From positions 1-56,234 of the forward strand of contig CAZMYR010000008.1 in assembly GCA_964570585.1 (NCBI GenBank): a DNA stretch of 56,234 nucleotides, given 5' to 3'. A program made the position numbers and the translations under genes. The notes beneath the pieces were generated by a model, which saw only the letters and a list, made by a program, of their open reading frames with translations, did no database searches and had not been told where the DNA came from. Of the stretch, positions 9,068 to 27,683 are shown one piece after another; the first letter of the stretch is position 1; each line of letters starts with the position of its first letter. The DNA comes from an uncultured Planctomycetia bacterium. Lineage in GTDB: Bacteria; Omnitrophota; Gorgyraeia; JABMRG01; JAFGKX01.

Positions 9068-9078
9068 GTCTCTTTAAT

Positions 9079-9744: not shown

Positions 9745-9745
9745 A

Positions 9746-10171
9746 TTATTGCCCGGAAAGTTCCTTTTTTCTTTTAAGCAGCTCCATAGCATACTTTGAG
9801 GTAAAATTACCCATTTTCTCTTTTATTTCCTCTAACTTTTTATCTACTTCTTTTAGAGTCATCCTGTTTATCTTTTTTCTCTTTTTTTCGGCTGTAGCAG
9901 GTTTTTCTTCTTTAGGTTTTTCCGCCTTGGGCTTCTCTGTTTTTGGTTTTTCTTCTTTTGGCTTTTGTTCCTTCTTGGGTTCTTTCTCTTTTGGTTTCCC
10001 TTCTTCCCTCGGCTTTTCCTCTTTTTTTGGAAGCTCTTTCTTCTCTGGTTTAGTTTCTGCAGGCGGTATCTGTTCTTTCGGTTTCTCCTCCTTAGGTTTT
10101 TCTGCAGGTTTCTGTTCCTTTTTAACGCCTTCTTGCTTCTGTTGCTTTTCTTCAGGTTTTTCGTCCGGCAT
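9746..10171 (-). CDS. Hypothetical protein with an EKPKE low-complexity N-terminus and a short basic C-terminal domain
   Basis: AAAGGAG RBS before MPDEK; imperfect EKP repeats; C-terminal KKINRMTLKEV...SKYAMELLKRK. Confidence 0.7.
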   Translation of the reverse strand: MPDEKPEEKQQKQEGVKKEQKPAEKPKEEKPKEQIPPAETKPEKKELPKKEEKPREEGKPKEKEPKKEQKPKEEKPKTEKPKAEKPKEEKPATAEKKRKKINRMTLKEVDKKLEEIKEKMGNFTSKYAMELLKRKKELSGQ

Positions 10172-10262
10172 AAATTCTCCTTTCAATTTAGTCTTATAAT
10201 TTACGTCGTTTTAAAAAACTCCGTAAATTATGATTTCGTTGATTTTAGCACATATATTAATT

Positions 10263-10829
10263 CTATTGCAATAAGTTTTTCCCCAGGCTATAGGCCTTTT
10301 TTAGAAATTCCGGATGGTTAAATACGTCTTTTGCTTTTTCTAAACCTGTGCAAAATAACTCATCGGTATATTCAGCTTCTATAACTTCGAAGAAATTCCT
10401 GGTGATTTGTTTTGCATTTTGAAAAAAGTCTTCCCTGTCAGAGGCCTCAACGCAAATAAGCGCTGCTTTTGCCCTGTTTTTTCTTATTGACTCTTTAAGC
10501 ACTGTTTTCCGTTCCCAAAATGGCTGGCATCGGTCTATCATAATTTTAGCCTGAGCACTTAACGAACCAAAATATATTGGCGAGGCCAAAATTATCGCAT
10601 CTGCACCTTTAATCTTGGCCTCCACTTCTTGCATATCATCTTTTGCTGGAGATTCGCCAATTTTCCTTGCAGGATTTGACTCCCGCCAGGGAGAAATATT
10701 CAACGTATCCAGAATTATTGTTTCAGTGACACACCCTGTATCTTTTGCCCCTTTAAGCGCTTCTTGAAGTAAAATATGGCAATTTCCGTCTTTTCTGGGG
10801 CTTGCATTTATGCCTAATGCTCGCATCAT
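10263..10829 (-). CDS. Flavodoxin/iron-sulfur-flavoprotein-like NADPH-dependent FMN reductase
   Basis: SPRKDGN phosphate loop, ASPIYFGSLSAQAKIMIDR; the Cys cluster motif is absent. Confidence 0.85.
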   Translation of the reverse strand: MMRALGINASPRKDGNCHILLQEALKGAKDTGCVTETIILDTLNISPWRESNPARKIGESPAKDDMQEVEAKIKGADAIILASPIYFGSLSAQAKIMIDRCQPFWERKTVLKESIRKNRAKAALICVEASDREDFFQNAKQITRNFFEVIEAEYTDELFCTGLEKAKDVFNHPEFLKKAYSLGKNLLQ

Positions 10830-10832
10830 TCC

Positions 10833-12044
10833 CTATTCCACAATAGGCCTTAGTTTTAACGGCTTAAAGGTGTATCCCGATTTCTCATCCGGTATCTTTG
10901 CCACCGGCTCTGTGAGTAAAAATTTTCCTTTTTTAATCCACCTTTTTAAAGCATTGGCTATTTCAAGTGCTTTCGGATAACTCGAAAGCCCGCCTGTCGG
11001 TATTTCTTTTCTTTTTATAAAAATCTTGCCGCTTCTAAGCTGGGCATAGTTTACTTCGCCAAGATTTCTTTTGTTGCCTTCGGGGTAATCTCTGCTGTAA
11101 TCTACTATCTTGGTAAAAATCTCCTCATCCTTTATGGCAGTATACCGGCAAACCTGCTCATTTAAAATAGGTATAGGAATTCCGATACCAACTGTTAATG
11201 TTGCTCCATAGCCAAGCATAGAGACCCCTATAAGCCAGCCGGATTTCATCTGTTTTAAATCTCCGATAACAGCAAGTGTGCCTGCCGGCACTCGGGGAAC
11301 TCCGCTCTTTCTCCTTAAAACTTTCGGATTATGCTGAGTGCCATGCCAGGCAACATAACCTATGCCTCCTCCTAAAAATATCTTTGTTCCGACTCCGATT
11401 GTTTCATAATATGGGTCATTAAGGAGCGGGGAAAGTTGTCCGGCAGAGCAGTAGTTTGCATTTCCTAAGTTCGGCCTTAACACCCCCATATAAGTATAGA
11501 TAGGCCTGTCTTTGTGAAGATTGACAGCTACATCGTAGTTTTGATAGGCATTTCTGGGATTAAACAACACTGCCTCATTGAGGTCTTTTATATTTATATA
11601 AGTTTCCAATTTTTTACCGGGATAGCAATCAGTGCCATAGGCAGTAGCTATTAATTTTAGGTCTTTGCCTGAAACTAAATCTTCAATTACATGCCCTCCT
11701 CCATAATTGAACTCGCCGGGAAATACCTTATTGCGTGGGTCATCATCAGGAAGGGCGTTAGCGCCAATAATAAGGTCTGCTGCTGCAAGGCCGGTGTAAG
11801 CCGGGACACCGTTTATACAAACTCTGCCGCCGCCAAGTTTTATCTTTGGCTTTGCGTGGCCTATATTAATATAGGCTGCTGAAGAACACATTGGCCCGAA
11901 AGTGCCTGTTGTTACAACATCAACCTCTTTTGCGGCCTTTTTTGGCCCTTTTTTCTCTACAATGTCGATTATCTCTTCAGCAGTAACTACAACTGCCTTT
12001 CCTTTTTTTATTCTTTCATTTATCTCTTTTATTGTCTTTGCCAT
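10833..12044 (-). CDS. Homocysteine biosynthesis protein (MA1821/DUF39, aspartate-semialdehyde sulfurtransferase family)
   Basis: KTIKEINERIKKG, VDVVTTGTFGPMCSS, YGTDCYP, NPRNAYQNY, YMGVL; adjacent to cysK. Confidence 0.88.
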   Translation of the reverse strand: MAKTIKEINERIKKGKAVVVTAEEIIDIVEKKGPKKAAKEVDVVTTGTFGPMCSSAAYINIGHAKPKIKLGGGRVCINGVPAYTGLAAADLIIGANALPDDDPRNKVFPGEFNYGGGHVIEDLVSGKDLKLIATAYGTDCYPGKKLETYINIKDLNEAVLFNPRNAYQNYDVAVNLHKDRPIYTYMGVLRPNLGNANYCSAGQLSPLLNDPYYETIGVGTKIFLGGGIGYVAWHGTQHNPKVLRRKSGVPRVPAGTLAVIGDLKQMKSGWLIGVSMLGYGATLTVGIGIPIPILNEQVCRYTAIKDEEIFTKIVDYSRDYPEGNKRNLGEVNYAQLRSGKIFIKRKEIPTGGLSSYPKALEIANALKRWIKKGKFLLTEPVAKIPDEKSGYTFKPLKLRPIVE

Positions 12045-12061
12045 CTTTTCTCCTTTACTCC

Positions 12062-12979
12062 TTAAAACAATTCCGTGCTAAGGTACCTTTCGCCAGTATC
12101 GGGCAAAATCACTACTATAAGCCTACTTTTATATTCTGCCCTTTGCGCAAGCTCTAATGCCGCCCATACTGCTGCTCCCGATGATATACCAGCCAGGATA
12201 CCCTCTTCTTTTATGAGTCTGCGGGTTGTCTCTATGGCATCCGCATTCTTTACTTTTATTATCTCATCTATCATCTTTACATCAAGAACATCAGGAACAA
12301 ATCCTGCTCCGATGCCTTGTATCTTGTGCAAACCTGCTGAACTACCCGATAAAACCGCTGAGTCAAATGGCTCAACTGCAATAGCCTTAAATGATGGTTT
12401 ACGCTTCTTTATTACTTGAGCAATCCCTGTTATTGTGCCACCTGTGCCTACACCAGCTACTATCGCATCTACTTTGCCGTCTGTATCTTTCCATATCTCT
12501 TTAGCGGTAGCCTTTCGATGAATTTCAGGATTTGTTTCATTTTTAAACTGCTGCAGCATAAAGTAATTCTTATTTGTTTTAACCAACCCCTGAGCCTTTT
12601 TAATTGCACCCTTCATCCCATCCTTACCAGGCGTTAATACCAACTCAGCGCCAAAGGCCTTAAGCAAGGTTTTTCTTTCGGCACTCATTGTCTCAGGCAT
12701 TGTTAAAATTAACTTATATCCTCTGGCTGCGCACACAAATCCCAAAGCTATCCCTGTATTCCCGCTGGTAGGCTCAACTATTACTGTGCCAGAATTAATC
12801 AAACCCTTTTTCTCGGCATCTTCAATCATAGCAACGCCTATCCTATCTTTTATGCTTCCACTGGGATTGAAAAACTCCAATTTAGCCACCACTGTAGCTT
12901 TAAGCCCTTTTGTAATCTTATTTAATTTAACTAAAGGGGTATTTCCTGTTAATTTTGTTATATCCTTGGCAATTTTCAC
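12062..12979 (-). CDS. cysK: Cysteine synthase A
   Basis: NPSGSIKDR (PLP Lys), [33 protein letters not shown]; GTG start. Confidence 0.96.
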
Positions 12980-13064: not shown

Positions 13065-13094
13065 CTAAATTAACTGGCGGGGACGATGGGATTC
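13065..13094. repeat. att site (left direct repeat; duplicated 3' end of tRNA-Asp)
   Basis: CTAAATTAACTGGCGGGGACGATGGGATTC, identical to 28870-28899. Confidence 0.95.
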
Positions 13095-13163
13095 AATCCC
13101 CACTTTTCGCAACCATTCTACCTGTCGTCGATAATTTTGTCAATCTTTATCTCTCTTTGAAAG

Positions 13164-13185
13164 AACGTAACAAAATCGTAACAAA
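13164..13185. repeat. Putative integrase arm-type sites, left
   Basis: AACGTAACAAAATCGTAACAAA tandem; the same tandem recurs at 28751-28774. Confidence 0.7.
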
Positions 13186-13186
13186 T

Positions 13187-13486
13187 CTAAGTTCCTATTA
13201 AGTTATTGACTACGCTAACAATAGTACAAATAACAATTATAAGCGTTAACACAATATTTGTTCTTGCTAATCGAGTATTACCTTTCGCTATGATTTCATT
13301 TGAATCTTTTAATTTAATAATGCTATCCGTCAATGCTTCTTTGAATATCCCGATTTCATCAGACATAAATCTTGCTACTTTTGATAATAAAATCGGGGCA
13401 AGTTTTTGCTCTTCTGGTGCTGTTGCAATCATACCTAGCCTTCTTTGAATCTCTTCAATTGCTAATTTACTATAATCTTCTGACAT
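13187..13486 (-). CDS. Small protein with a C-terminal TM helix
   Basis: AAAAGGAGG RBS before MSEDY; coiled-coil-like body, hydrophobic C-terminus. Confidence 0.7.
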   Translation of the reverse strand: MSEDYSKLAIEEIQRRLGMIATAPEEQKLAPILLSKVARFMSDEIGIFKEALTDSIIKLKDSNEIIAKGNTRLARTNIVLTLIIVICTIVSVVNNLIGT

Positions 13487-13507
13487 AAACAACCTCCTTT
13501 TTGATGT

Positions 13508-13536
13508 ATTATATCCTATCTATCTAATTTTTCCAA
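13508..13536 (-). promoter_or_regulatory. Sigma70-like promoter for the small membrane gene, overlapping the integrase 3' end
   Basis: TTGGAA-17bp-TATAAT on the minus strand. Confidence 0.55.
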
Positions 13537-14586
13537 CTTTTTAATCTTCTTATTTACTTCAGGCCTAAATATGTGGGCATAACCTTCTGTAGTCCTTAAT
13601 TCTGTATGCCTCATCTGCTCCATTACCTCTCTTGTATTTAACCCTGCATTGAATAAATAACTACAATGGGTATGCCTGAGCTCATGTATTGTGCTTATAC
13701 TGTCAATATTGGCCTTCTGCAATATTGCCTTTAATCTTCTAATGATCTTCCTTGTTCTAAAACCAAACGCTTCTCCATTTTCTGTTGTAAAAACATATTC
13801 ACCCTTACTCTTCGTTTTAAGCGCTTCTAAAAGCTTTTTAAGGCTATCATGGATACTAACATAGTCCGGTTTTTTCTTGCATTTCGGTTTCATAATCCAT
13901 AACACATTATTCTCAAAATCAATATCTTGCCATTTCAGCTTTATAAGCTCTGTAAATCTAAGGCCGGTGTGGATAAATGTATAAAATATGGGATAGTAAT
14001 GAGGATATTCTCTTTTTGCTATTTTCATAAATCGCTGATATTCCTCTGGAGAAAGGGCATTTTTCTGCTTTGCGTCATTGACTTCTAGTTTCTTGCATCC
14101 TTTAGCAGGATTTTGCTTCATAAGATTATGGCTTATTGCAAAATTAAATTGTGTAATGAGATTTTTAAGATGATTATTGCAAGTGTTGGCCCTATCCTGT
14201 TTTACTTCTCTTAAATATGTAATATATCTGTCTATTAAGGCAGTATTAATATCTGATAAAAGGCCTACCCCTATAATACCTAAAAAACGTCCAAACTCAT
14301 TAACAACGCTTTTATGTGATTTAAAAGTCTCATAAGGGTATCGTGCTTTATAATGCTTTAAGAACTCGCCGGTGAAATAGGTATACGGCATATCACTTAC
14401 GACCTTTTCACCTTCCTGTAATGTCCTGTATTCAGTAATACGAGTTAGGAGCTTCTTTCTTGCTAGCTCTTTATCATCCGTTTTGCTGCTCTCTTGCCTG
14501 CGTTTACCACTGGCGTCATAATACCACATCCACCAAACAGAGCTGTCTTTTCTTCTGTATATATCACCAAACTTTTTCGCTGTCAT
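13516..14586 (-). CDS. int: Tyrosine recombinase/integrase
   Basis: N-terminal arm-binding WWMWYYDASGKRR; TGLRFTEL, HELRHT, QMRH, EGYAH catalytic set. Confidence 0.95.
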   Translation of the reverse strand: MTAKKFGDIYRRKDSSVWWMWYYDASGKRRQESSKTDDKELARKKLLTRITEYRTLQEGEKVVSDMPYTYFTGEFLKHYKARYPYETFKSHKSVVNEFGRFLGIIGVGLLSDINTALIDRYITYLREVKQDRANTCNNHLKNLITQFNFAISHNLMKQNPAKGCKKLEVNDAKQKNALSPEEYQRFMKIAKREYPHYYPIFYTFIHTGLRFTELIKLKWQDIDFENNVLWIMKPKCKKKPDYVSIHDSLKKLLEALKTKSKGEYVFTTENGEAFGFRTRKIIRRLKAILQKANIDSISTIHELRHTHCSYLFNAGLNTREVMEQMRHTELRTTEGYAHIFRPEVNKKIKKLEKLDR

Positions 14587-14755
14587 TGCCTCTTACGGTC
14601 TCCTTTACTGCTCTATCAACTTCACCTAAAATAAATCTTGGCTTTCCATTAAACCTATAATAGGGTATCTTATCCTTGCTCACATAATAGTAAACCGTGC
14701 CTGTTGGCAATCCTATAAACTCTGCTACCTCTTTTACTCCTACATATTTTCTCAT
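14564..14755 (-). CDS. xis: Excisionase-like HTH_17 protein
   Basis: YVGVKEVAEFIGLPTGTVYYYVSKDKIPYYRFNGKPRF; AAAGGGG RBS; overlaps the int start. Confidence 0.8.
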   Translation of the reverse strand: MRKYVGVKEVAEFIGLPTGTVYYYVSKDKIPYYRFNGKPRFILGEVDRAVKETVRGNDSEKVW

Positions 14756-14779
14756 TATTTCCCCTTTCTGAACAACTGG

Positions 14780-14795
14780 CTTGACAACTGTCAAG
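14780..14795. promoter_or_regulatory. Palindromic operator upstream of xis-int
   Basis: CTTGACA-AC-TGTCAAG; same arms as the palindrome at 15013-15032. Confidence 0.7.
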
Positions 14796-14813
14796 ATTTA
14801 GATTAAAAAAATA

Positions 14814-14993
14814 TTATATAACCTCTTCCTTTTTCAAAATTTTCAGGTACGCTTTTGAAATATTTGATCTTCCTCTAATCCATCTATTGAGCGTACCATC
14901 CGGAATTCCTATTTGTTTTGCGAATTCCCACTGACGGAGGTTATGTTTTCTCATATAATCTTCTATCTTCGCAAGTATTTCCTTTTCCGTCAT
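14814..14993 (-). CDS. 59-aa XRE-family HTH regulator (not in ORF track)
   Basis: MTEKEILAKIEDYMRKHNLRQWEFAKQIGIPDGTLNRWIRGRSNISKAYLKILKKEEVI; classic XRE pattern. Confidence 0.85.
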   Translation of the reverse strand: MTEKEILAKIEDYMRKHNLRQWEFAKQIGIPDGTLNRWIRGRSNISKAYLKILKKEEVI

Positions 14994-15001
14994 CTGAATC
15001 T

Positions 15002-15032
15002 ATTATACCACTGACTTGACAATTGTCAAGTC
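15002..15032 (-). promoter_or_regulatory. Consensus promoter with an overlapping perfect 20-bp palindromic operator
   Basis: TTGACA-16bp-TATAAT with extended -10 TG; GACTTGACAATTGTCAAGTC at 15013-15032; -10 lies 8 nt from the ATG. Confidence 0.8.
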
Positions 15033-15102
15033 TTTTTTTGAAAAAATTTCCGTTTTCTAGGCAGAGAAGTATGAATAATTTTGGAGGAAAGTTGAAACTT
15101 TC

Positions 15103-16251
15103 TTAAAAAAGAATACTCTTCAAAAATAGTAAAGAATCTATAATTCTGAATTTTAGCTTCCTATTAATTTTTATTTTTTCGGAATAACGCTCTTCTTTTC
15201 TAGTTGGAACTTTAGGATTTATCCACTTCTCATCTGTTAATTCTTCAAATGCCTTAACAATTTCTTCTCTGCGAAACTTAAAATATTTCCATTCATTTAT
15301 ATAATTTACTACATCATCTACAGAACCAACTTCTCCACTTGACACAAGAGATGCCCAAGCTAATAATACTGAAGATAAAAGTTCTATTTTTTGCAGAGGA
15401 AATTTACTTAAGAAGGTTACAACATGTGTTATTACATTTCTAGCAAAATTTAAATCTAAATTTAATTCTTCAATTGCTTTCAACCATTTAGTTTCATCTA
15501 GAATAATAAGATCTGATTTTGACAAGGTAGGGGATGCATCTCTAACAAATAAACCTTCTAACCTATCTATATTGAAATTCAAGTTATAGTCATAAGGACC
15601 TAATTTATATTTTTTAAATTTTAATTCAATAGGAAGGCCCGCCATTTGAGAAAAAAATGCTATTTTTTGTAAAAGCAATCGGCCTATTGGGACCTCGGGA
15701 GAGAAAATTTCTCTAGCTATGCGTACCATTTCTCCTGTATAAACAGACGCTTTAGTTAATTTAATTTTGTCAATTTTCTTAAATGGATTCTTCCTAGGAA
15801 TACGGTCTCCTGTCTCTAAAGGCTCATAAAGTTCTATATCTATTGGGAGATTCGAAAGATGTTCAATAATTAGTTTTTTTACCTTGTTCCAATCCAATCC
15901 ACCCATGCCGCAACCTAAAGGAGGAATAGCGATAGAAGTAATGTTCCATTTTTTATAGTTATTAACTAAAGAAGTAAGGCCTTCTTCAATAAATTCATAT
16001 TTAGAGGGCCCTTTCCAATTATCTTTTGTAGGAAAACATAATATCTGCAAATGCAGATCTTTATATAAGTACAAATGCCCTTTGCTTAGCTCTCCCCTTT
16101 TACAAGCTTTTGCATATTCTTTATACATCTCGGGGAATCGATATCTGAACTCTTTAGCTAGGCCTTTCCCCATGATTCCTACGCAGTTTACAGTCGCAAC
16201 AAGCGTCTGCACTTTAGACCTAAATATGTCTCCTTTAATAAATTTAATCAT
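15103..16251 (-). CDS. darG: DarG antitoxin (macro-domain DNA ADP-ribosyl glycohydrolase plus C-terminal domain)
   Basis: GDIF...VATVNCVGIMGKGLAKEFR, FPTKDNWK, IPPLGCGMGGLDW macro motifs; YKLGPY and ELLSSV in the C-domain; 4-bp overlap with darT. Confidence 0.9.
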   Translation of the reverse strand: MIKFIKGDIFRSKVQTLVATVNCVGIMGKGLAKEFRYRFPEMYKEYAKACKRGELSKGHLYLYKDLHLQILCFPTKDNWKGPSKYEFIEEGLTSLVNNYKKWNITSIAIPPLGCGMGGLDWNKVKKLIIEHLSNLPIDIELYEPLETGDRIPRKNPFKKIDKIKLTKASVYTGEMVRIAREIFSPEVPIGRLLLQKIAFFSQMAGLPIELKFKKYKLGPYDYNLNFNIDRLEGLFVRDASPTLSKSDLIILDETKWLKAIEELNLDLNFARNVITHVVTFLSKFPLQKIELLSSVLLAWASLVSSGEVGSVDDVVNYINEWKYFKFRREEIVKAFEELTDEKWINPKVPTRKEERYSEKIKINRKLKFRIIDSLLFLKSILF

Positions 16252-16862
16252 TGGTAATAATATGCAGGAACTACAAATATTTTTTTGTGGACGTCATGAG
16301 CTCTTAATATCTCTTCGGCATGCTTTCTTATACTATTATTATATACCACAATAGCTATAACTTTGTCCAGTGATATTTGGTGGAGCTTTAAAACCTCGGC
16401 TTGTTTTTTACGCTTTGCCTCATCAGATTCTCCCCAGTAATGCACGCTCGCTGCTTTTAAATCGACCTTATTAACATTTTTACGGCCTTGGTAGAATTTA
16501 GTTTGATTTGCCCTAGCATTTCCATCTGTAAACCACGTTGTATCTTCAAAAATTATATTCCAATTGATTAACAAGTAGATTATTTTCTCCTGCGCTATAC
16601 CCTTTCGTCTTAATGCTAATAACATAGGGGGACGTGCACCAAAGAAAGCAGGAACACAATCATGTAAATAGTAGCTTGTACCCGGAACAACAATACGGCT
16701 CCTGGCTCTCTGGATATCATCACTTGAAACATCCTCGTATTTAATTTTTGCAGATATAATTTTATTTTTTGATAATAAACCTCTTCTTAATATACCCGGT
16801 AAGTTATTTATGTGTGTTATATGAAACAGTGCCCCATTTTTTAATACAAAACGGATTGCCAT
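16248..16862 (-). CDS. darT: DarT toxin (DUF4433 ssDNA ADP-ribosyltransferase)
   Basis: FHITHINNLPGIL..GLLS, LHDCVPAFF, PPML, FTDGNA, KKQAEVL with the catalytic Glu. Confidence 0.9.
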   Translation of the reverse strand: MAIRFVLKNGALFHITHINNLPGILRRGLLSKNKIISAKIKYEDVSSDDIQRARSRIVVPGTSYYLHDCVPAFFGARPPMLLALRRKGIAQEKIIYLLINWNIIFEDTTWFTDGNARANQTKFYQGRKNVNKVDLKAASVHYWGESDEAKRKKQAEVLKLHQISLDKVIAIVVYNNSIRKHAEEILRAHDVHKKIFVVPAYYYQ

Positions 16863-16888
16863 AATTCTGAATTGGAAAATCGTTTAAT

Positions 16889-17116
16889 CTAATCTTTGGA
16901 ATAGCAATTAATCTTTTCTTTTATCCAATTCCAGCCGGGATTGTAGTAATTAGTAAACGATTTAAAATTGTCTTTTAGCCACTCGTAATAATCATCTTCA
17001 ATATATTCACAAAAAGTCTCAACAAAAACATTTTCAGAAATATCCTCTGGAACCTTAATTCCTATATCTTCAAAACTTTCTTCTAAAAATTCTTTTACAA
17101 CTTGTCTGTCTAACAT
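16889..17116 (-). CDS. Small acidic, aromatic-rich hypothetical protein
   Basis: GGAGG RBS; 75 aa; 26 bp upstream of darT. Confidence 0.7.
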   Translation of the reverse strand: MLDRQVVKEFLEESFEDIGIKVPEDISENVFVETFCEYIEDDYYEWLKDNFKSFTNYYNPGWNWIKEKINCYSKD

Positions 17117-17353
17117 TTTTTAATCCTCCAACGCATTAAATGCTAATTTGTCTTTTCTAACCCTAATTTGGTGCCATCCTACTTGGGGCCACCCCGCAAT
17201 CTTAATTCAGCCCACTCCGCTATTTCAACCTTTCTTCTACCCTGCGTCCAGTTTCAAAAAGGGACAGGTTGGTTTAAGAAGCCTGCTAGCAGGCGGGTAT
17301 CCCTACAGGGTCTTCCTTTGTTTTCCAAAAAAACAGAAACATACTCTTTTCAT

Positions 17354-18214
17354 CTAATGATCTTTTGTTTTATAAAACTCTTCTATCGTCTTTGATATAA
17401 CTGTACTGTCATGAGTATTACCGAGGTGACTTTTAAACATATCAAATACTTCTGACCAATTCTTATACTTTTCCAAAATAGCTGGTTGACATCCTGGTAT
17501 AAATAATCCTAATATTTTGTAGTTAGAATCGCTTGTATTATAAAGTAATAAACTGCCGCAATCGCCAAAAGCTCCATTAATATCTACATGAAAGCCACGA
17601 AAGAATCTCTCATGCATATCCTTAAAGGCCAAATCCTTATTTTTTATTATAATATCTTCTCCAAGTTTGCCTTCTAAAATTTTGCAAAATCTAGGAATAA
17701 TATCTTTGTTAACTTGTCCACCGGGATAACCTATTATTACCATTTTTTTATCATAGTCTATGAGGTTACTTTCTTCTCCCTGTAATAATACATCATAATT
17801 AATAAATTTATCCTTTAAACTTTGAAGTTTCTTCTCCTGTGTTATCTCTATCCCACACATATCGTTCATTCTTAAATAAGTTTCTTTAAGTAGGACCCCT
17901 TCTATTTCTTTCACGTTATTAGAGACATAGGGAATTGTTACTTTTTGATTATCAATATATATTTGAAAACCATCGGGATCGCCTAGCTCTTTATGAATAC
18001 CATGCTTTGCAGTAATAAGGAATAGCCTCTCTTCAGTATTTTGTCTGCGTCTTATTATAAAACCGTTCAAGCCGCCCATAGCTTTGCCGTTAAATATCGG
18101 CTTAACAATTACTATTGTTTTTTTAAAATCTTCGATGGTATAGGCATAAGAAATGTGCGACAGCACAAGTAGTAACATACAGAAAAATATCGTGGTTAGC
18201 TTATTTATTTTCAT
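17354..18214 (-). CDS. Secreted chymotrypsin-fold protease-like protein with Cys at the nucleophile position
   Basis: Signal peptide ending SYA; ITAKH (H71), D118, IIGYP, GDCGS (C219). Confidence 0.7.
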   Translation of the reverse strand: MKINKLTTIFFCMLLLVLSHISYAYTIEDFKKTIVIVKPIFNGKAMGGLNGFIIRRRQNTEERLFLITAKHGIHKELGDPDGFQIYIDNQKVTIPYVSNNVKEIEGVLLKETYLRMNDMCGIEITQEKKLQSLKDKFINYDVLLQGEESNLIDYDKKMVIIGYPGGQVNKDIIPRFCKILEGKLGEDIIIKNKDLAFKDMHERFFRGFHVDINGAFGDCGSLLLYNTSDSNYKILGLFIPGCQPAILEKYKNWSEVFDMFKSHLGNTHDSTVISKTIEEFYKTKDH

Positions 18215-18326
18215 ATTTAATCAAAAAAGTATGCTTCTATTATTGCCAATAAAACTTGAATTTGTCAAAAAATAGAAACATGCCCTTTTTCTACTTATCG
18301 TACATACCCCTTTTTATAAAATTTAA

Positions 18327-21104
18327 TTATATTCCTGTTCTGCGTGGTATTGCGTATCTATACTGTCTTACTTGAAAGGCTCTTTCTCCTCCTTCGAGTT
18401 CTAGCACTTTAGCACAGACGTTTTCGTCTGCAAAAGTTCCCGAAGTTTCTATGGAACATTTGGATTTAGATTCTACCGGGTCGTTTCTAACTTTTATCAG
18501 AAGTTCTGCATCAGCAAGCACAGGAATATTCGCATTATGTGATATAAGAAGAGTCTGGCGTTCGGTTTTTGAATCAAGTATTTTTGGCACTATTTTATTA
18601 ACAATATAGCTGTATCCGAGCTCATCTTCTGGCTGGTCGATTATAAGAGGCTCGTCTCTCACCATCAATGCCAAAGTTAAAATTGCAGAGCTCTGTTCTC
18701 CTGGTGAGAGCTCAGTTGTTAAATCTGCAAACACATTAGTTCCTTCGCGTTTAACGCTAATTTTGGGAATTGGCTCTAGATCAAAAACCTGAAGTTTGTG
18801 GAGAGACTTTATAGCACCTATAACGGTACACAAAACTTGTTGAGTATTATCAGTAATTCTGCAAGTTTCACAGAGCGTTGATGTTTTACCGTCTCCTTTT
18901 CTAAATTGCCCACTATTAGCAATTGCTTCCAGAAGTTGACCCGGAGAAATATTCTTAACTAAAAGGGTCAGCTGCTCGTCTCGTTTCTGTAATTTTCTAT
19001 CTTGAGAGGCTATTTCGGAGTAAATGCCTTTCATCAATTCTAAAAATGGGAGAAAACTAGGCTTTTCTAACTTAATCTGAATGTCGGGTCCTATAAACTT
19101 GTTAAGTTCGTCTATTTTGGATTTTCGTGAATCATTAATTACTGTACAGACTTGCCAAAATTGTTTTAGCAATGAATCTCTTGTTTGGTTCAGGCTTCTT
19201 ATTTGTTCTTCAGCATCCTTCAGCTTGGGTAAATCGTGTTTTTCTATTGCGTTGACTTGTGTTTGCAGTGTTCCTATTTTTTTTAGGAGTTGTTCTGGCG
19301 ATTCAAATCCTTTCTTCCTTAATGTTTTTGTTACATCTTTTTTGTGAGTATCATATTGAGTATCCCAATCCTGCAATAGCGGTGTTAATGATTTTTGTAG
19401 ACTTAAAAAGGCTGCGTTGATTTGACTTATCGCTGAAGAGACAGCTTTATTATAGTCGACGACAGCATCAGAAATGGATTTAAGTATTTTTGGTTGTACA
19501 ATTTCTTTCTTTTTGTATTCTGGTGATGGTATTGTTAGTTCATTTTTTAGTTCTTCCTGTGAAGATGCTTTTTCTTCAAATCCTTCAATAGCTGAGGTGA
19601 TATCTTCTATTATTCCCCTAGTATTTTCCCACAGATCGTTATCGGTTTCTTTTAAGTGCTCTTTATTTTGCTTTAATTCTTTCTTAAGGTCTTTTAAGCT
19701 GCCGACAGATCCAGTGAGCTTTTCCTTTTCATTGTATAGGTCAGCAAGGGACTCTGCATTCTGTTCTAAATTTCGTTTGAGTTCTTCTTTCTTTTTCCTT
19801 TGTTCTGAGAGACCCGCTAAATCGTCAATTAGAGAAAGTTGGGATTGCACGCTTTTACGTAATACACCAACGTGCCCTTGGCTGTAGATTTCTGGCAAAA
19901 ACGTAGTTTCTTCAGGCTCGGTGACGGGAATCAGTTCATCATTGGCTTCGTCATATTCAAAGACTTCGGGGCTACTATTGATTTCTATAATGTTCTCATC
20001 CATGTTATATTCAGGCACAAATTTTCTGTAGATACAGTACGTTTTATCATTTTTGGTAACGTACAAATTTACTTCGCCTTCTGGTTGGAGAATTGCGTTC
20101 AGTCGCCTTATTAAAAGGTCAAGCTCCTCTTGCCTGTTAATGCTCAAAACAGACAGGTCTCTTCCAAGAGCAAAGCTGATGAAATCAAAAACTGCTGTTT
20201 TACCCGAATGATTTTCTCCAAAAATGCATGTTAGTTCCTGCGAAAAGCTAATTTTTAAACCATCGAAAAATCCTCCCTTTGCTGTAAGACCGAGCAGTTT
20301 ATATTTTTTGTTTTTATCGGGCTTTAGCCGTGAAATACACGTTCTTGGCTCACAGGTTACTTGTCTGAGGCCGCGCACAGTTCGGCTACCAAGCTTAAGC
20401 CAGGTGCTTCCATTATTTATGTCGGCGGCGCATTTAACTTCGCCTGCGTTGATTGGAGACAATGAATAATCTGTTGAGGAGATTTTTGTGGCAGGTGTAC
20501 TTAAAAGGATGTACCTGTTATGCCAGGCGCCGTTATAGTGTCCAATAAATTTAACTTTATCTTCTGGGATTTGAATTAGGCCGATATTTCCTGATTCTAG
20601 CCAAGTCATTTTAGTAGCTATTTTTCTTGCACTATCAAGAAATCCTATATTTTCGGAAAAGGGATGAGGAACTATGGTTATTCCCTTGTTATCTGTTATG
20701 TCAGTTAGAACTTGGGAACATGTTTTATCTTTTACGGGAGTTTTATCAGAACCCTTGACTGGAATCTTCAGCGTTCCAAGAAAATGCGTCTGTTTTATTT
20801 CATCGAAATCTTCATCAAATATAGCTAGGATATGAGCCCCTTCTTCCAGGGTAATTTCAATACCCGGAAGAATGACAAGATCGGCCCCCTTTTTTTTCTT
20901 GACCGCATCTTGTACAAGTTTAACAAATTGGAAAGTGTTATGATCAGTAACAGCTATTAATGATATTCCCGCTTCAATTGCTTTTTCGACTATTTCGTCA
21001 GGATTTTGCCCTTTTGCATGCACATGCAAATTAACCTTGTACCACTGTGCACCAACTTTATTATCGAGGAAATACCGTAAATCAATTAATCTTTCTATAG
21101 TCAT
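18327..21104 (-). CDS. PHP phosphoesterase-ABC/SMC-like ATPase fusion (TrlF family; Ppl-like anti-phage protein)
   Basis: LHVH, VTDHN, GIEI, PHP motifs; Walker A GENHSGKT, coiled coil, LSPGE signature, IIDQPEDEL, ISHNANIPV. Confidence 0.85.
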   Translation of the reverse strand: MTIERLIDLRYFLDNKVGAQWYKVNLHVHAKGQNPDEIVEKAIEAGISLIAVTDHNTFQFVKLVQDAVKKKKGADLVILPGIEITLEEGAHILAIFDEDFDEIKQTHFLGTLKIPVKGSDKTPVKDKTCSQVLTDITDNKGITIVPHPFSENIGFLDSARKIATKMTWLESGNIGLIQIPEDKVKFIGHYNGAWHNRYILLSTPATKISSTDYSLSPINAGEVKCAADINNGSTWLKLGSRTVRGLRQVTCEPRTCISRLKPDKNKKYKLLGLTAKGGFFDGLKISFSQELTCIFGENHSGKTAVFDFISFALGRDLSVLSINRQEELDLLIRRLNAILQPEGEVNLYVTKNDKTYCIYRKFVPEYNMDENIIEINSSPEVFEYDEANDELIPVTEPEETTFLPEIYSQGHVGVLRKSVQSQLSLIDDLAGLSEQRKKKEELKRNLEQNAESLADLYNEKEKLTGSVGSLKDLKKELKQNKEHLKETDNDLWENTRGIIEDITSAIEGFEEKASSQEELKNELTIPSPEYKKKEIVQPKILKSISDAVVDYNKAVSSAISQINAAFLSLQKSLTPLLQDWDTQYDTHKKDVTKTLRKKGFESPEQLLKKIGTLQTQVNAIEKHDLPKLKDAEEQIRSLNQTRDSLLKQFWQVCTVINDSRKSKIDELNKFIGPDIQIKLEKPSFLPFLELMKGIYSEIASQDRKLQKRDEQLTLLVKNISPGQLLEAIANSGQFRKGDGKTSTLCETCRITDNTQQVLCTVIGAIKSLHKLQVFDLEPIPKISVKREGTNVFADLTTELSPGEQSSAILTLALMVRDEPLIIDQPEDELGYSYIVNKIVPKILDSKTERQTLLISHNANIPVLADAELLIKVRNDPVESKSKCSIETSGTFADENVCAKVLELEGGERAFQVRQYRYAIPRRTGI

Positions 21105-21176
21105 ATTTTTCTTCCTTACTTCCTTAACTCATACAAAGAAACCCATTCGTCAGGGGCGCGTTCACATGTCCATACT

Positions 21177-24100
21177 TTATGTATCATAATTCTCAACAAT
21201 TTTTATTTCCTTATCTGCAAGACCATATAATTTATAGACCATCTTATCGATTTGTTGTTCATAATTATAGACTTTGTCTTGCTTTTCAGTATTTTCAAAA
21301 TAATCATCTGATTTGGCAATTTCCAAAATTTTATCGACGATTTCTACAAACGGTCTTTTTTGGAATTTTGATGTTATTGGGGCCGGGAGATTATTTATCA
21401 TATCCTTTGTAAAGTTGATGCCTTCATTGTAACTCGATGCCTGATATTTTTCCTTTATAAAAAAAGATGCTAATTTACTATTTAAAATGGATAATAAAAA
21501 TTTTAACTCATTTATATCATCATGGGCAACGATTAAAGTTGACTTTCCCGGTATAACATTTCCATCAAAATCTAAACAAGCATCCAGCAAAGTCAATCCT
21601 TTTATTATTATTTTAAATCCTACTGATTTTTTTGCATAAGAACTTTTAAATAAATTAAAAAAATCTTGTTTATTTACAATTGGATAAAGATATTTATTCT
21701 TTAAATAAGTCATTTCTTGACTGCCCCATTTTGATGCATATTTCCCAATTGTTCCTGTATTTATTATTTTCAGGTGTTTATTTCTATCAAACTTATTTTT
21801 TGATAACTCTTTGATAAGTGGTTTTAATTTATAAGCATCGGATGTCGCACACGCACTTTCGCAATTAAATGAATCAAATATTTTATTAGGAATGGCTCCC
21901 ATCTTAATTAGAAGGTCTAGATTATTAGAAAACAGAAAATCAAGTGCAAAGGGAGGTTTTAATATTTTTTTATTTAACTCTTTCTTAAAAACAATTTGAT
22001 TATTTTCAAAATTAAATATTTTTAACTTTTCACAGCAGTTTTGTTTAAAAAATGATATTATAGAATCGACTTTTGAACTTTCGAATATCTCTCTACCAGC
22101 TTTAAAAATAGTATATATATTTTTAATTGTATATTTTCTAAGTTCATCTCCAAAAGGTTTTGATATCCATTTGTCAGGAGTAATGAAGGTTAATACACCG
22201 TTCGTATTCAAAATTCTAAAGCCAAGTTCAAAAAAAGCTATGTAAATATCCCAATTCCCCTTTGTCATCGTATAAGTTTTAACAATATGTTCACGAAGGG
22301 CTATCTGTCCGCTATTGACCATTCTCTCAGAATCAATATATGGTGGATTAGCAATAACTATATCAAACCCTCTTTTCACCCCAAACATCCACTCTGGACC
22401 AAACCATCCACAAGAATCGAATGAGAATGGATCCCATTGGCACAGTTTAAGGGTCCGGGAATCCTTCACTCCCCAGTTTAAACTATGTTTAAACATTCTA
22501 CTCTGAGTCTCTCTAAATTTCTTTTCAACTGCCTCTTTTTCTTCACCATAACTTCTTAAGTATTCATCGCGAAGATTCTTTAGCAAATCTATGTCGTCGG
22601 TAGCTTCAAACAGGGTTTGTTGTGCTTCTTTTTTTGGTAATCCTACAAGGCTATTTGCGCAAACAAACTTAAACTCCAAATTTGGAAGCGGTTCTATGCC
22701 TCTATTCTCTTTTGAATCATCCACTTTGTCATCCACAATCAGGGATAAGAAAAATCGCAATTTTGAAATATCTACAGCGATCGGTTGAATATCAATCCCA
22801 TAAATAGAACTTTGAATAATACCAAGCTTATGCACATAATCCCAATTTTGCTGTTTAAGTTTCTTTTCAAGTTCCTTTTTCAAGAGTTTATTGTCTATTT
22901 GTGCTAATTTTTTAATAAGCCACTTTCTAGATTCAGGATCAATTTTTTGCAGAATCAAAAGCATCTTTTGAAGTATTCCTATGGGAAAAGCCCCACTCCC
23001 GCAAGCAGGATCAATGATTTTTATAGTATCTAATGCATTAAGTACTTTGTCTTTCTCGGAATCTGTTAAATCAACTTGTTCTTGTTCATAGGCAAGTAAA
23101 GAAGCTATTTTATCCTCACGTAACTTTGCCTTATTAAGCAAATAGTGCTTGAGGCTTTCATCAACCATATATTCTACAATGGGTCTAGGTGTATAATAGC
23201 TTCCGGTAGCTTTCCTCGCTGTTTCGCCTGTTTCAGGGTTAATTTCTGCTAATAAATTCTCAAAAATTCTACCAAGCATTTCAGGTTCTATTGCAAGTTC
23301 AACATCCATAGATGTATTTTCATCAATAGTAAAATTATAGGTTTCGAAAATCTCAAATAGATCTTCAAACCATTCGTCTGGTATTTTCAGCGTATTAATA
23401 TGTTTTGAAATTCCAAGTGGGCCGGGATCAAAAAAATCATGAATGTGTGGCGTAAAAAGACCGCCGTTTAGGAAAGGAATTTTTGCCCAAAGACTATTGC
23501 GATGCTCCTTTCTACGTTTATCAATCGGCGTATTTAGAACTTCGAAAAAGAGAGGCTCCAATACTTTATGATAATAAGCTTTATTTTTTGGAATTACTTC
23601 TGATGATAATAACCTTTCTGGCAGTAGAGAAACGCCAGCACTGGAACGTTTTTTCTTTAAAAACCAACAAAAAACCAACCTTCCAATTAATCTGACCGAA
23701 AATTCTTTCTTTAATGTATCGTCAGAAGTTGATGGCAATCGGAGGCTACCTTTTTCGTCGAACTGAGTTCTACCAATAGTTCTTTTCCCTCCCGCTAACT
23801 TTGTAAAAAGAATGGCTATCCGTGTATAGAACTCCTTATTGACTACTTCTATAGAAAACCTATTTTTTAGGTCTTCGAAATCCTTAACCCTACCTAATTT
23901 AAGTAAGTATTCTTCAGGAGTATGAGTTTTTGTGTCCGGGCCTAAAAAGAAAGAATATCTACGAGGATTAGAGTATTCTTTCTTAACTCTCCGCCCTTCC
24001 TCCCACTTTAAATCGATAGTAACAAGCGATAACCTATAGTTAGATGAATTTTTAGAGATAAACAGAATTAATGCTTTTTTTACACCATATTGTGATAGGA

Positions 24101-24335
24101 AGCGAAAAGAATCTCTAGAAAGGGAAACTCGAGGGTCATTCTCTGACCGATGCTTTGCCTCATATACAGATAGGTCGAGAGAGGGCACTTCCCCTAGTTT
24201 AGTAATGTTTTCGATGAAGTGAGTCTGAAAATTAATTTCGATCTTCTCTTTGCAAGATTCAAAGTCCTCCGGCAAGAAATAGCTTTGGAAAAAATCTACA
24301 TAACCATCTAAATTATAAGGTGCCTTAAAATTCAT
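21177..24335 (-). CDS. Large N6-adenine DNA methyltransferase with C-terminal target-recognition domain (Eco57I/type IIG-like)
   Basis: GSYYTP, DPACGSGAF, GIDIQ, NPPY motifs; TaqI_C-like C-terminus. Confidence 0.9.
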   Translation of the reverse strand: MNFKAPYNLDGYVDFFQSYFLPEDFESCKEKIEINFQTHFIENITKLGEVPSLDLSVYEAKHRSENDPRVSLSRDSFRFLSQYGVKKALILFISKNSSNYRLSLVTIDLKWEEGRRVKKEYSNPRRYSFFLGPDTKTHTPEEYLLKLGRVKDFEDLKNRFSIEVVNKEFYTRIAILFTKLAGGKRTIGRTQFDEKGSLRLPSTSDDTLKKEFSVRLIGRLVFCWFLKKKRSSAGVSLLPERLLSSEVIPKNKAYYHKVLEPLFFEVLNTPIDKRRKEHRNSLWAKIPFLNGGLFTPHIHDFFDPGPLGISKHINTLKIPDEWFEDLFEIFETYNFTIDENTSMDVELAIEPEMLGRIFENLLAEINPETGETARKATGSYYTPRPIVEYMVDESLKHYLLNKAKLREDKIASLLAYEQEQVDLTDSEKDKVLNALDTIKIIDPACGSGAFPIGILQKMLLILQKIDPESRKWLIKKLAQIDNKLLKKELEKKLKQQNWDYVHKLGIIQSSIYGIDIQPIAVDISKLRFFLSLIVDDKVDDSKENRGIEPLPNLEFKFVCANSLVGLPKKEAQQTLFEATDDIDLLKNLRDEYLRSYGEEKEAVEKKFRETQSRMFKHSLNWGVKDSRTLKLCQWDPFSFDSCGWFGPEWMFGVKRGFDIVIANPPYIDSERMVNSGQIALREHIVKTYTMTKGNWDIYIAFFELGFRILNTNGVLTFITPDKWISKPFGDELRKYTIKNIYTIFKAGREIFESSKVDSIISFFKQNCCEKLKIFNFENNQIVFKKELNKKILKPPFALDFLFSNNLDLLIKMGAIPNKIFDSFNCESACATSDAYKLKPLIKELSKNKFDRNKHLKIINTGTIGKYASKWGSQEMTYLKNKYLYPIVNKQDFFNLFKSSYAKKSVGFKIIIKGLTLLDACLDFDGNVIPGKSTLIVAHDDINELKFLLSILNSKLASFFIKEKYQASSYNEGINFTKDMINNLPAPITSKFQKRPFVEIVDKILEIAKSDDYFENTEKQDKVYNYEQQIDKMVYKLYGLADKEIKIVENYDT

Positions 24336-24338
24336 AAC

Positions 24339-27300
24339 TTAAATTAGCTCTTCTGATAAAATTAACGACTCTTTGCCCTCTTCGATCTTCCTTTCTCTCT
24401 CGATAATATCCAAAAGATATCTATGCGGGACTTCTTTTTGTAGATGCTTAACAGCATCATTAATATTTTTAAATTCAACTGCCCGTATAATTTTCGCATA
24501 TCTATCAGGCAAACTATCCAATTTTTTTAACACATGCAAAAGATCCTCTAGGTAATCTATCTTCTTGGGTAACTTTGATTTTAAGGCCTCGACTTTGCTT
24601 ATTGCTTCCTGCTTTCCGCGATCTAAAGCCACTTCTTTTATCTGAGAAAATAGTTTTTCTTTAACCTTTTGGTATATGTCATCAAATGATTCGCTCGTTT
24701 TTTCTGCCTCTTCCGAAATCTTTGCTTCAAATAATCTAAGAGCTTCATGTACACTTAAAGATATGGGCTCTTCTACTTTAGAACCAAACTTGAATGCATG
24801 CTCCTCACCCTTTTTCCCAAAAATGACTACGCCCTTTTTATCTTTTTTCTGAGTTCGTTTAATCCTAGCTCTTCTTGATATCTTCATAACCTCTTTAATA
24901 AGTTCAGGTTGCGATTTACGCAATTTCTTTATAAAATTCTCATATTGTGTTTCCGGCGATAATTCTTCTTGAGCACTAAGTGCGTCTTGGAATTGTTTGA
25001 CAAAGAATGACTGAAGTTCCTCATCTTTTGTAAGCACTTTTGTATCCTCACCAAAAAGAGCGTGAACCATTGCTAATTTCAAAGTAGAAATCTGCCTAAC
25101 TCTTGTTTCTCTTTCGCCTGTAGCCGTTGGGAAAAAGTTATAAATAAAAAGCTCATCAAATACCTTTTTGTTAATACGGTTAATGCGTCCGACCCGCTGG
25201 ATCACTCTGGTTGGATTATAGGGAATATCGTAATTAAAAATTATGCCTGCTCTATGCAAGTTAAACCCTTCAGATATTGCATCAGTAGCTATTAATACAT
25301 CATATTCATTTTTCTGGGTTCTAAAACCAGCATCGAAATTTTCTTTTATAGTTCTTTTATTTTTTTCACTAGCGTCAGTTGCTGAATATTTAAAGACTCT
25401 TGTTCCATCTTTTAATTCTTTAAATAAGTACTCAGCTGTATCAGCAAATTCAGTAAAAACCACTATCTTCCTTTCAGGATCTTTTTTTAGCTTTTCTTTC
25501 ACTATTCCAGAAAAATGTTTGAGTTTCGGATCCTCGGGAAACCCCTTCCCAAACCATTTCTTGCGAATGTCCTTAAGAGTTTTGATATCCTTTTTTACGT
25601 CATCAATAAATGCCTTTCTCACTTCTTTTTTATCAATAAGCCATAGACCTTTTTCTTTATATTCCTCTAGTTCCTTATCGAAAATAAGATCCCTGAGCTC
25701 CTCGTCAATATCTTCACCAACGGTCTCTAAAAGGGAATCTAAATCGGGCAATTTTCCACTCTTGTAAATAGGAATCTTGCCTAGTTTCTCATACCATTCA
25801 CATATAAGTTCGGATTGATAAATAATAGAATCCAGGGTTCTCTGAAATGCATAAATTGAACTCTCAAAACGGCGGACAAGTAGACGCCTCATGAACAAAG
25901 CCAAGTTAATCTGTGATTGGCGCAATAGGTTTTCGTCAACGCCCATTTCCCGGGCAATCCTTTCCCGGTATTTCTCAAAGTTTTTGATATAACTTGTTGG
26001 TTTATATCGAGCGCCTATAAAACCTTCTTCCTCTTCATCTTCAGGAGCAATAGTTTCAAGGGTTTCTTCGTAAAGATCGCTTAAATCCTCTAAATCATAG
26101 TCTAAAAGCTCTGGGGGATTAACCACGGGAAAGGATATTTTTTTACGCCTCAAATCTTCTCTGTATTCATCTATCCCTTCAAGGTCCAAACGAGAACGAC
26201 GTATTACTAAAGGCGAAATAATATCACGGATTTCCTCTGCAACTTTCTTTACACGTTCTGCAATAGCCGCAGCGCTTTCTTTCTTCGTCTTCTGTATTTC
26301 TTTGATTTGTTTGTATTCGGCAACAAGTTTTTTAAATTGGTAGGATAAGTTGTCAACGGTCTGGATAGTCGACCTAGTTGGTATCTGGAATAACTTAATC
26401 ATTGAAAAAACATCTTGGGGACGATTATTAAAAGGGGTAGCCGACAATAGCATAATTTTATTGCGCTGGCAAAGTTTATGTAGATTTGCGTAATCAATTG
26501 TTAGCTCATTCCTATATTTATGCGCTTCATCAATAATAATTAACTTTTCTTCTTCCTGATTATTTTCTTCCAGAGCTTGTTCAATTTTGCCGCTACTATA
26601 TACCTTAGCATGGAATTCAAAATCATATCTATAGTCGTCCCATTGCGCCTTTAGGTGAGGTGGAACAATTATAATAGATTTGAGGTTAAGATTATGTGCT
26701 ACGGCAGAAGCAATAATACTTTTTCCCAGCCCAACGACATCCGCTATAATAACACCATCGTGTCTTTGCAGTATGTCTATTGTTCTTTTGATCGCATCTT
26801 CTTGGTATTTTAGATTTACATATTGTCCTCTTGTAATCTCAGCAGGTAATTTCAAGAAATCCTTTTTATGTTCGGCAAAATATTCTTCTAATACCCTTAC
26901 ATACATCAAAAAAGGTTTAGGCACTTTATCAATCCAAACTTTTTCAACAACATTATATAGGAACCCTTCAATGTTATCTTTATCTACAATAGTGACTGCT
27001 TTTTTCCACAATTCATCGAAAATTTTATATGCCTCATTATAATTGTGCTTATCTCTTGAGATTATATTTATCTCAAACTGTCCTCTTAGTCCAGCTCTTG
27101 TAAAATTGCTAGACCCAGTAATAATAGTACCGGGATATTCACCGCCCTGATTGAATTCTTTCTTATTCTCAAAAATATACAATTTGGCATGATTTGGCTG
27201 AAGTGTTTTCTTGATTTCTAACGATCCATCTTTTATTTTCTTGAGGAATAGCCTAAATGCCTCCTGCTTCTCTTTTGAATCAAAAAAGTCAGTATCATTG

Positions 27301-27584: not shown

Positions 27585-27683
27585 AATATCTCCAAATTGT
27601 TTATTCGTCCTCGCTTCAATAAATTCCTCTAAATCCTCCTGTTTAATCCGCCATTTACCGATTTTCGTAGCTTTAATTTCTTT
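27585..27683 (-). pseudogene. C-terminal remnant of a second HTH_17 gene, in frame with the helicase start
   Basis: KEIKATKIGKWRIKQEDLEEFIEARTNK; no in-frame start, TAG upstream. Confidence 0.6.

Follow-up and report, generated by a model that had tools for sequence, protein, structure and literature searches.

A very rare bacterial clan PA family with a cysteine at the nucleophile position and an export signal, one member of which is encoded in a defence island

We analysed a stretch of 56,234 nucleotides from an uncultured bacterium (GenBank assembly GCA_964570585.1, contig CAZMYR010000008.1, positions 1 to 56,234; this whole stretch is referred to as the window) and concentrated on one of its genes, P0001, which lies in an integrative island among anti-phage defence genes. 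P0001 and two relatives, P0002 and P0003, form a new and very rare bacterial family of chymotrypsin-fold (clan PA) proteins that bear an export signal and have cysteine as the nucleophile. In textbooks, proteases of this fold that use cysteine in that way serve as markers of RNA viruses. The reading we favour, and consider reasonably probable, is that P0001 is an exported clan PA protease with a His71-Asp118-Cys219 triad, carried as cargo of the island, whose best-guess role is a conflict function at the cell envelope.

A preliminary description of the gene, made from the DNA letters, had pointed to H71 in the motif ITAKH, to D118, to the motif IIGYP and to a cysteine, C219, encoded by TGC. 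All of these are found at those places in the translated open reading frame (ORF), which starts with ATG. The motif ITAKH spans residues 67-71, NDMCG 117-121, IIGYP 160-164 and GDCG 217-220, and D118 follows H71 at a distance of 47 residues.

We searched for homologues exhaustively with phmmer in 1.84 billion sequences that represent some 15 billion proteins and recovered only two relatives of P0001, namely P0002 (282 amino acids, 45% identity) and P0003 (318 amino acids, 41% identity). All three sequences are metagenomic, and each is a singleton in its 90%-identity cluster. Word-index searches with the single sequence, with the full alignment (E<=1) and with the alignment of the mature proteins (E<=10) returned family members only. 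Scanning GTDB genomes, IMG/VR and JGI metagenomes with the family alignment revealed no relative, and tblastn against phage and plasmid records produced nothing beyond chance matches to phosphoglycerate mutase. A degenerate DNA pattern for H-x-G-x-THDSTVI retrieved an identical copy of the locus on an independent JGI contig (L005; 100% identical, with 0 differences to the window over 2841 nt), together with one chance match in Psychrobacter that lacked an ORF.

The three-way alignment of the family has 28% invariant columns, and these include H71 (within RxFLITAxHG), D118, G217, D218, C219, G220 and S221. By a rough estimate, the chance that H71, D118 and the GDCGS motif would all be invariant is 1.5e-4. 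Further invariant stretches are GEDI (185-188), FRGF (205-208) and the C-terminal SHxGxTHDSTVI; the last of these, running from S262 to I273, marks the family and may contribute to the substrate pocket. In each of the three genes the cysteine is encoded by TGC, with flanking glycine codons that differ from gene to gene (GGC/GGG/GGA and GGC/GGT/GGA), which argues that the cysteine has long been kept and is neither a sequencing error nor a recent slip from serine. The preliminary description had named homologues that all carry GDSG and reads showing a serine codon as outcomes that would speak against it, and had cautioned that TGC is one base away from AGC and TCC. The motif is GDCGS in both relatives, so that the cysteine at the nucleophile position is conserved, and the independent contig L005 bears the identical TGC; the one-base caveat is thereby settled.

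The fold was modelled with AlphaFold2 (AF2). Run on the single P0001 sequence, the program gave an unusable model (predicted local distance difference test score, pLDDT, of 36), whereas with the three mature sequences as an alignment it reached a pLDDT of 68.8 and a predicted template modelling score (pTM) of 0.75. The latter model comprises six strands, two linker helices, six further strands and a C-terminal helix, matching the two six-stranded barrels and C-terminal helix of clan PA. In mature numbering (full-length minus 24) the triad reads H47, D94 and C195, the last number coinciding with that of chymotrypsin, whose reference positions are His57, Asp102 and Ser195. H47 is modelled after strand 37-45 (C1), D94 right before strand 95-100 (F1), and C195 ahead of the penultimate strand pair, 197-202 and 208-215 (before strand E2); the last strand, 242-245, is followed by helix 246-260. 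In the strand order of the model, H71, D118 and C219 are at the canonical places of His57, Asp102 and Ser195, and the succession of histidine, acid and nucleophile at the canonical loops is that of clan PA.

When this model was compared with the PDB by Foldseek, 24 entries matched at E<=1e-3, and each of the 50 matches listed was a clan PA protease. The best was the 3C protease of hepatitis A virus (HAV; E 7.6e-6, TM score 0.59-0.62 on the target), followed in order of E by tobacco etch virus (TEV) protease, the trypsin-like domain of a Gemella IgA1 protease, V8, Esp and the 3C protease of the virus that causes foot-and-mouth disease (FMDV). DegP, DegS, HtrA1, exfoliative toxin A (ETA), chymase and thrombin appeared later among those listed. 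In BFVD, a collection of structures predicted for viral proteins, 147 entries matched at E<=1e-3, with picorna-like polyproteins in the lead. The matches listed for the two databases belong to clan PA with a Foldseek probability of 1.00 and E values down to 1e-7. Overall, the chymotrypsin fold proposed in the preliminary description is backed by both the AF2 model and Foldseek; its further expectation, that the fold would bring H71, D118 and C219 together, agrees with their canonical positions in strand order, an assessment made by topology only.

Viral 3C and 3C-like proteases (MEROPS C3, C4 and C37; for example, HAV and FMDV 3C, TEV NIa and the norovirus protease) provide the best Foldseek matches and share with P0001 the double beta-barrel, the order histidine, acid, cysteine, and a G-x-C-G turn that leads into a strand, then a turn and then an h-h-G-h strand. 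In sequence, the segment GDCGSLLLY...YKIVGLF of the family profile aligns over 29 residues with GDCGCPYIY...YVVIGVH of the norovirus protease, in which GDCG is the catalytic cysteine motif; with a best E of 0.15, this similarity to calicivirin (MEROPS C37) is not significant. Similarly, P0003 matched Pfam Peptidase_C3 (PF00548) at E 0.02 and 15.3 bits, below the cut-off of 22, along the last 37 profile positions only, on which its GDCGS motif falls. Unlike the viral enzymes, P0001 is a cellular, chromosomal protein, encoded by a separate island-borne ORF with a signal peptide and not as part of an RNA-virus polyprotein. It also has two conserved linker helices and an insertion of approximately 40 residues that separates its last two strands. 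The G-x-H motif of 3C has its S1 histidine about 18 residues after the cysteine, where the family shows phenylalanine or tyrosine (F238; LGLF, IGIY, VGMF), a position that aligns with the histidine of norovirus IGVH. The label "viral 3C-type" given to the protein earlier is therefore right for the nucleophile, as the GxCG motif is present, but does not extend to membership among the picornains (C3), given the subthreshold Pfam score, the missing G-x-H motif and the absence of a polyprotein. On these data, the kinship of P0001 with viral 3C proteases extends to the level of clan PA.

The S1B proteases (V8/GluV8, Esp, exfoliative toxins, Spl), serine endopeptidases secreted by bacteria, offer a cellular comparison. 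Their sequence motifs include T-A/N-K-H and a GYP at the first strand of barrel 2, and the ITAKH and GYP motifs of P0001 look at least as S1B-like as 3C-like. Like P0001 as predicted, these enzymes are secreted single-domain clan PA proteins of approximately 200-250 residues; they are often found on mobile elements, and their Foldseek matches range from E 1e-4 to 2e-3. P0001 differs from them in having cysteine instead of the serine nucleophile, and P0003 lacks the GYP. In terms of family S1 as a whole, the serine of G-D-S-G is replaced by cysteine in all three members, none of which matched Pfam Trypsin or Trypsin_2 at E<=10. HtrA, DegP and DegS are likewise exported clan PA proteases of the envelope (Foldseek E 6e-4 to 2e-3), from which P0001 is distinguished by the lack of a PDZ domain and, again, by cysteine in place of serine. 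An hhalign comparison with Escherichia coli DegP, DegQ and DegS laid the H71 motif locally on the catalytic-histidine motif, with a probability of 0.15% that is not significant, and gave a meaningless alignment in global mode.

A further comparison concerns the trypsin-like modules of anti-phage systems (trypsin-MBL, nuclease-protease, the CARD-trypsin of gasdermin systems and the retron XI RT-protease), which are also clan PA proteins in defence contexts. These are cytoplasmic serine proteases, fused to or paired with the sensor and the effector that they cleave, whereas P0001 is a predicted exported, stand-alone protein with cysteine and without a conserved partner. Searching PADLOC-DB 2.0 for defence proteins gave no match for P0001 or P0003, and P0002 weakly matched the protease part of the retron XI RT-protease (E 0.003). 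To our knowledge, all cysteine families of clan PA are viral. The clan comprises 9 cysteine and 14 serine families in MEROPS (PMC7804941). Our literature survey found no bacterial GDCG protease or clan PA cysteine protease; subscription journals were outside its coverage, so this is weak evidence.

The N-terminus of P0001, MKINK-LTTIFFCMLLLVL-SHISYA, then YT, has the layout of a Sec-type signal peptide. It contains two lysines; no other 12-residue stretch of the protein is as hydrophobic as the one in residues 6-18 (Kyte-Doolittle 2.7), and the likely cleavage point, SYA/YT, has small residues at -1 and -3. AF2 modelled the signal segment as a helix with a pLDDT of about 80. In all three homologues, two or three lysines or arginines are followed by the protein's own most hydrophobic segment. 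P0003 has an A-x-A-like site, TFA/L, comparable to SYA/Y in P0001, and P0002 has a lipobox, IIS/C, where P0001 has its cleavage site, so that P0002 is probably a lipoprotein, judging by its sequence. As called, P0003 carries 26 extra N-terminal residues; a GGAGG just upstream of M27 restores the same N-terminus in this protein. By inspection and hydropathy, then, the n-, h- and c-regions of Sec export, or a lipobox, can be recognized in each homologue, and the signal peptide of the preliminary description appears as an export-type segment common to the family. Mature P0001 would begin approximately 9 residues ahead of the first beta strand. The conserved ED(Y/F)KK block and this strand come directly after the predicted cleavage site, which leaves no obvious room for a propeptide.

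Upstream of the gene, a candidate for a promoter of its own had been proposed. A TTGACA-18 nt-AATAAT site is indeed present, agrees with the consensus at 11 of 12 positions and is the top promoter-like site in 16800-18450; the number of such sites in the region, 9 against 7.0 +/- 2.1 in shuffled sequences, is not above expectation. Taken with the export signal, in a neighbourhood of cytoplasmic proteins, this candidate promoter makes the gene look like a self-contained module.

The island that carries P0001 is 15.8 kb long (13065-28905) and is bounded by a 36-nt direct repeat that copies the 3' end of a tRNA-Asp gene (Table 1). Its G+C content is 29-37%, whereas the flanking DNA beyond its integrase end has about 39-43%. 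The remaining cargo consists of defence genes, namely DarTG and Ppl together with genes for a type IIG-like methylase and for an HKD-Snf2 helicase. Together with the att repeats and the integrase, they confirm the defence-island setting that had been proposed for the gene.

Table 1. Features of the P0001 gene and of the island that carries it.
Feature	Position	Strand	Basis or remark
Coding sequence, P0001 (286 aa), predicted exported chymotrypsin-fold Cys protease	17354-18214	-	ORF and translation, two homologues, AF2 and Foldseek
Sec-type signal peptide, codons 1-24 (MKINKLTTIFFCMLLLVLSHISYA / YT), cleavage site inferred	18143-18214	-	n, h, c regions; hydropathy
His71 (mature His47) codon CAT, motif LFLITAKHG, proposed general base	18002-18004	-	invariant in family
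Asp118 (mature Asp94) codon GAT, proposed third triad member	17861-17863	-	invariant; assigned by topology
GDCGS motif, residues 217-221, proposed nucleophile and oxyanion-hole glycines	17552-17566	-	invariant
Cys219 codon TGC	17558-17560	-	
Invariant block S262-H-x-G-x-T-H-D-S-T-V-I273	17396-17431	-	last beta strand of barrel 2, ahead of C-terminal helix
Sigma-70-like promoter candidate, TTGACA-18-AATAAT	18239-18268	-	112-nt gap after Ppl; consensus match only
Distal att repeat, copy of tRNA-Asp 3' end	13065-13100		36 nt, 94% identical to 28870-28905
Tyrosine integrase	13516-14586	-	Pfam Phage_integrase 2.5e-26; island end far from tRNA
DarG	15103-16251	-	PADLOC 4.1e-85
DarT	16248-16862	-	PADLOC 1.6e-46
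Ppl (PHP and SMC-like ATPase), upstream neighbour of P0001	18327-21104	-	PADLOC 2.1e-29; Pfam PHP, AAA_23, SMC_N
Type IIG-like methylase/restriction protein, 1052 aa	within 21177-27584		PADLOC REase_MTase_IIG 1e-79
HKD(PLD)-Snf2 helicase, 1081 aa	within 21177-27584		PADLOC candidate C3a139 "HKD+Snf2" 7e-37; also DrmD
HTH_17 excisionase-like gene	27673-27846		tRNA end of island
81-aa backbone ORF	27954-28199		tRNA end of island
Winged-helix gene	28192-28638		tRNA end of island
Proximal att repeat	28870-28905		overlaps 3' end of tRNA-Asp 28880-28958 (-)

The contigs of the two relatives were compared with this arrangement. The P0002 contig (L004) opens with a homologue of the 81-aa backbone ORF (L004 107-343 matches window positions 27954-28211, with 64% amino acid and 75% nucleotide identity) and also has an HTH_3 gene and a weakly HTH_17-like gene; from the shared backbone ORF and the helix-turn-helix genes, P0002 is cargo of a related element. 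The other cargo beside P0002, a 309-aa membrane protein and a 358-aa protein with a LAGLIDADG domain, is unlike that of the window, which points to related islands exchanging cargo. With M27 taken as its start, P0003 (on L001) lies 177 nt downstream of a tRNA-Tyr gene (182-267) and is followed after a 13-nt gap by a 215-aa polytopic membrane protein without a family match (L001 1336-1983). We considered a conserved partner gene and rejected it, as the membrane proteins in the vicinity of P0002 and P0003 show no relationship, either with one another or with any gene of the window. Neither P0002 nor P0003 adjoins Ppl or DarTG.

Several other features of the island were recorded. The methylase gene lies directly downstream of the HKD-Snf2 helicase gene, and this two-gene module is not among the named systems. 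A strongly acidic ORF of 75 amino acids (16889-17116, minus strand), 26 nt upstream of DarT and without a signal peptide, had no Pfam or PADLOC family match; it may be a member of the DarTG operon, or a small regulator or mimic. The 237-nt gap after the P0001 gene (17117-17353) includes a G+C-rich patch with the palindrome GCCTGCTAGCAGGC. A structured RNA or terminator in this gap was rejected, with a fold z-score of 0.0 relative to shuffles and no Rfam match, and the plus-strand ORFs at 17148-17357 and 17168-17395 look spurious.

The flanking chromosome (1-12979 and 29100-56234), nearly all of whose genes lie on the minus strand, encodes PurF, MnmG, PolX, an archaeal-type iPGM, a TreT-like trehalose synthase, Endo V and UDG, as well as a methanogenesis-marker-16-like protein and several CbiA/ParA-ferredoxin fusions. 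Also just outside the island, the product of 31620-32558 (minus strand) weakly matched the prokaryotic viperin profile (46.5 bits versus a cut-off of 180) and is probably an ordinary radical-SAM enzyme. The many iron-sulfur proteins encoded by the host are typical of anaerobes; further markers of anaerobic life are present, and the host looks like an anaerobic bacterium.

Under the reading we favour, P0001 would be a small single-domain endopeptidase in which a thiol nucleophile replaces the usual serine of cellular clan PA enzymes. It would be made with a Sec signal peptide, exported and relieved of its signal, P0002 being lipid-anchored instead, and the mature enzyme would work in the periplasm, on the cell surface or extracellularly. 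With Asp118 orienting it, His71 would deprotonate Cys219, and the thiolate would attack the scissile bond as in 3C-like proteases, the oxyanion hole being made up of backbone NH groups in the G-D-C-G turn. C219 should be a free thiol, since it has no invariant cysteine partner, and the anaerobic setting of the host would let an exported thiol enzyme stay reduced. The aromatic residue at the S1-histidine position and the invariant THDS strand suggest a specificity other than the Gln/Glu preference of 3C. The analysis shows the class of fold, the conservation and topological placement of the three residues, the export-type N-terminus and the island setting, whereas catalytic activity, signal cleavage site and compartment are inferred. 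The envelope conflict function would consist in excluding phages or mobile elements, or in attacking competitors, by cleaving a specific exposed protein; this role is speculative and draws on the genomic company of the gene and on the rarity and divergence of the family.

A number of points weigh against this reading. At the level of sequence, P0001 has no match in Pfam (E<=10), NCBIfam, PHROGs or PADLOC, its PDB sequence matches all have E>0.01, and IIGYP is deleted in P0003. The structural model was built on a three-sequence alignment and has 56 residues with pLDDT<50; its low-confidence stretches are residues 74-93, just before the aspartate, and 218-239, which come after the nucleophile strands and lie within the insertion of about 40 residues ahead of the last strand. 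Moreover, the placement of the triad was judged from strand topology, and the export call comes from inspection and hydropathy. A Shine-Dalgarno sequence is missing before the ATG of P0001, as it is before several other genes of the window. As for the defence role, it comes without a PADLOC match or a conserved partner: only three loci are available, two of them on contigs shorter than 4 kb, and no neighbour is common to all three.

Among the alternatives, the one that survives best keeps the same exported clan PA cysteine protease as mobile cargo and makes it an accessory fitness factor outside defence, acting in nutrient acquisition, in remodelling of the surface or matrix, or in interaction with a host or competitors. 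As a whole we hold this account possible but doubtful; for the role itself, an ordinary accessory exoprotease is nearly as likely as an envelope conflict function. Mobile elements are known to carry S1B proteases, examples being the exfoliative toxins, Spl and Esp, and the S1B exoproteases V8, Esp and ETA are among the best structural matches of P0001, whose LITAKH and GYP are S1B-like. In addition, the gene has neither a conserved defence partner nor a PADLOC match, and islands routinely bear cargo unrelated to defence. However, in the sole locus with long context, all other cargo genes are defence genes, and a family so extremely rare and fast-diverging is more typical of conflict genes.

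A bolder form of the conflict function seems to us unlikely. Here, the stand-alone exported cysteine protease would be a one-gene factor of envelope immunity or exclusion and, at the same time, the first cellular cysteine family of clan PA. Its target would be an incoming phage or mobile-element protein, or a receptor, in the periplasm or at the surface, and its nucleophile would be either independent of that of RNA-virus 3C proteases or ancestrally related to it.

The remaining explanations fit the data poorly. P0001 might be a dead chymotrypsin-fold binding protein (a pseudoprotease), or its cysteine might be artefactual or have arisen by recent mutation from a serine protease. The single step between TGC and AGC or TCC speaks for the latter, but the same TGC cysteine stands in the identical independent contig and in three genes with differences at over 55% of residues, and the invariance of the histidine, the aspartate and the whole GDCGS turn, compared with 28% of columns overall, is the pattern of a working active site; we regard both variants as very improbable.

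We give even less credit to P0001 as an accessory component of Ppl or DarTG, for example by activating or degrading a component of theirs through proteolysis. The gene does lie on the same strand as these systems; it comes 112 nt behind Ppl, with another 237 nt between its end and the small ORF ahead of DarT, and trypsin-like proteases recur as partners of defence effectors (PMC12799240; bioRxiv 10.1101/2025.09.03.673762). The partner proteases in this literature are cytoplasmic, though, whereas an export signal is seen in all three homologues; the relatives are not beside Ppl or DarTG, P0001 has a promoter candidate of its own, and each of the two systems is complete by itself in PADLOC.

Finally, a caspase-like (clan CD) protease using H71 and C120 is scarcely credible: p20 profiles of caspase-1 and caspase-4 did match residues 35-89, laying FLITAKHG on FLVFMSHG, and C120 follows H71 by 49 residues, resembling the caspase His-Cys spacing, but these matches (E 0.08-0.4) are not significant, C120 lacks a preceding hydrophobic strand and is not invariant (P0003 has tryptophan there and a cysteine one position later), and AF2 models the protein as an all-beta double barrel, with no clan CD structure among the Foldseek matches listed.

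The importance of the family is bounded by its size, as it is tiny, comprising three metagenomic sequences. Nevertheless, in terms of enzyme evolution it is genuinely odd, and its molecular reading is supported at the level of fold and motif. If the gene protects its host at the envelope, it would represent a new kind of one-gene defence. If the reading of P0001 as an exported clan PA cysteine protease is true, cellular lineages have also made and kept the switch between serine and cysteine in the chymotrypsin fold, and the family would offer a non-viral system for the chemistry of that switch, with a bearing on the origin of 3C-like proteases.

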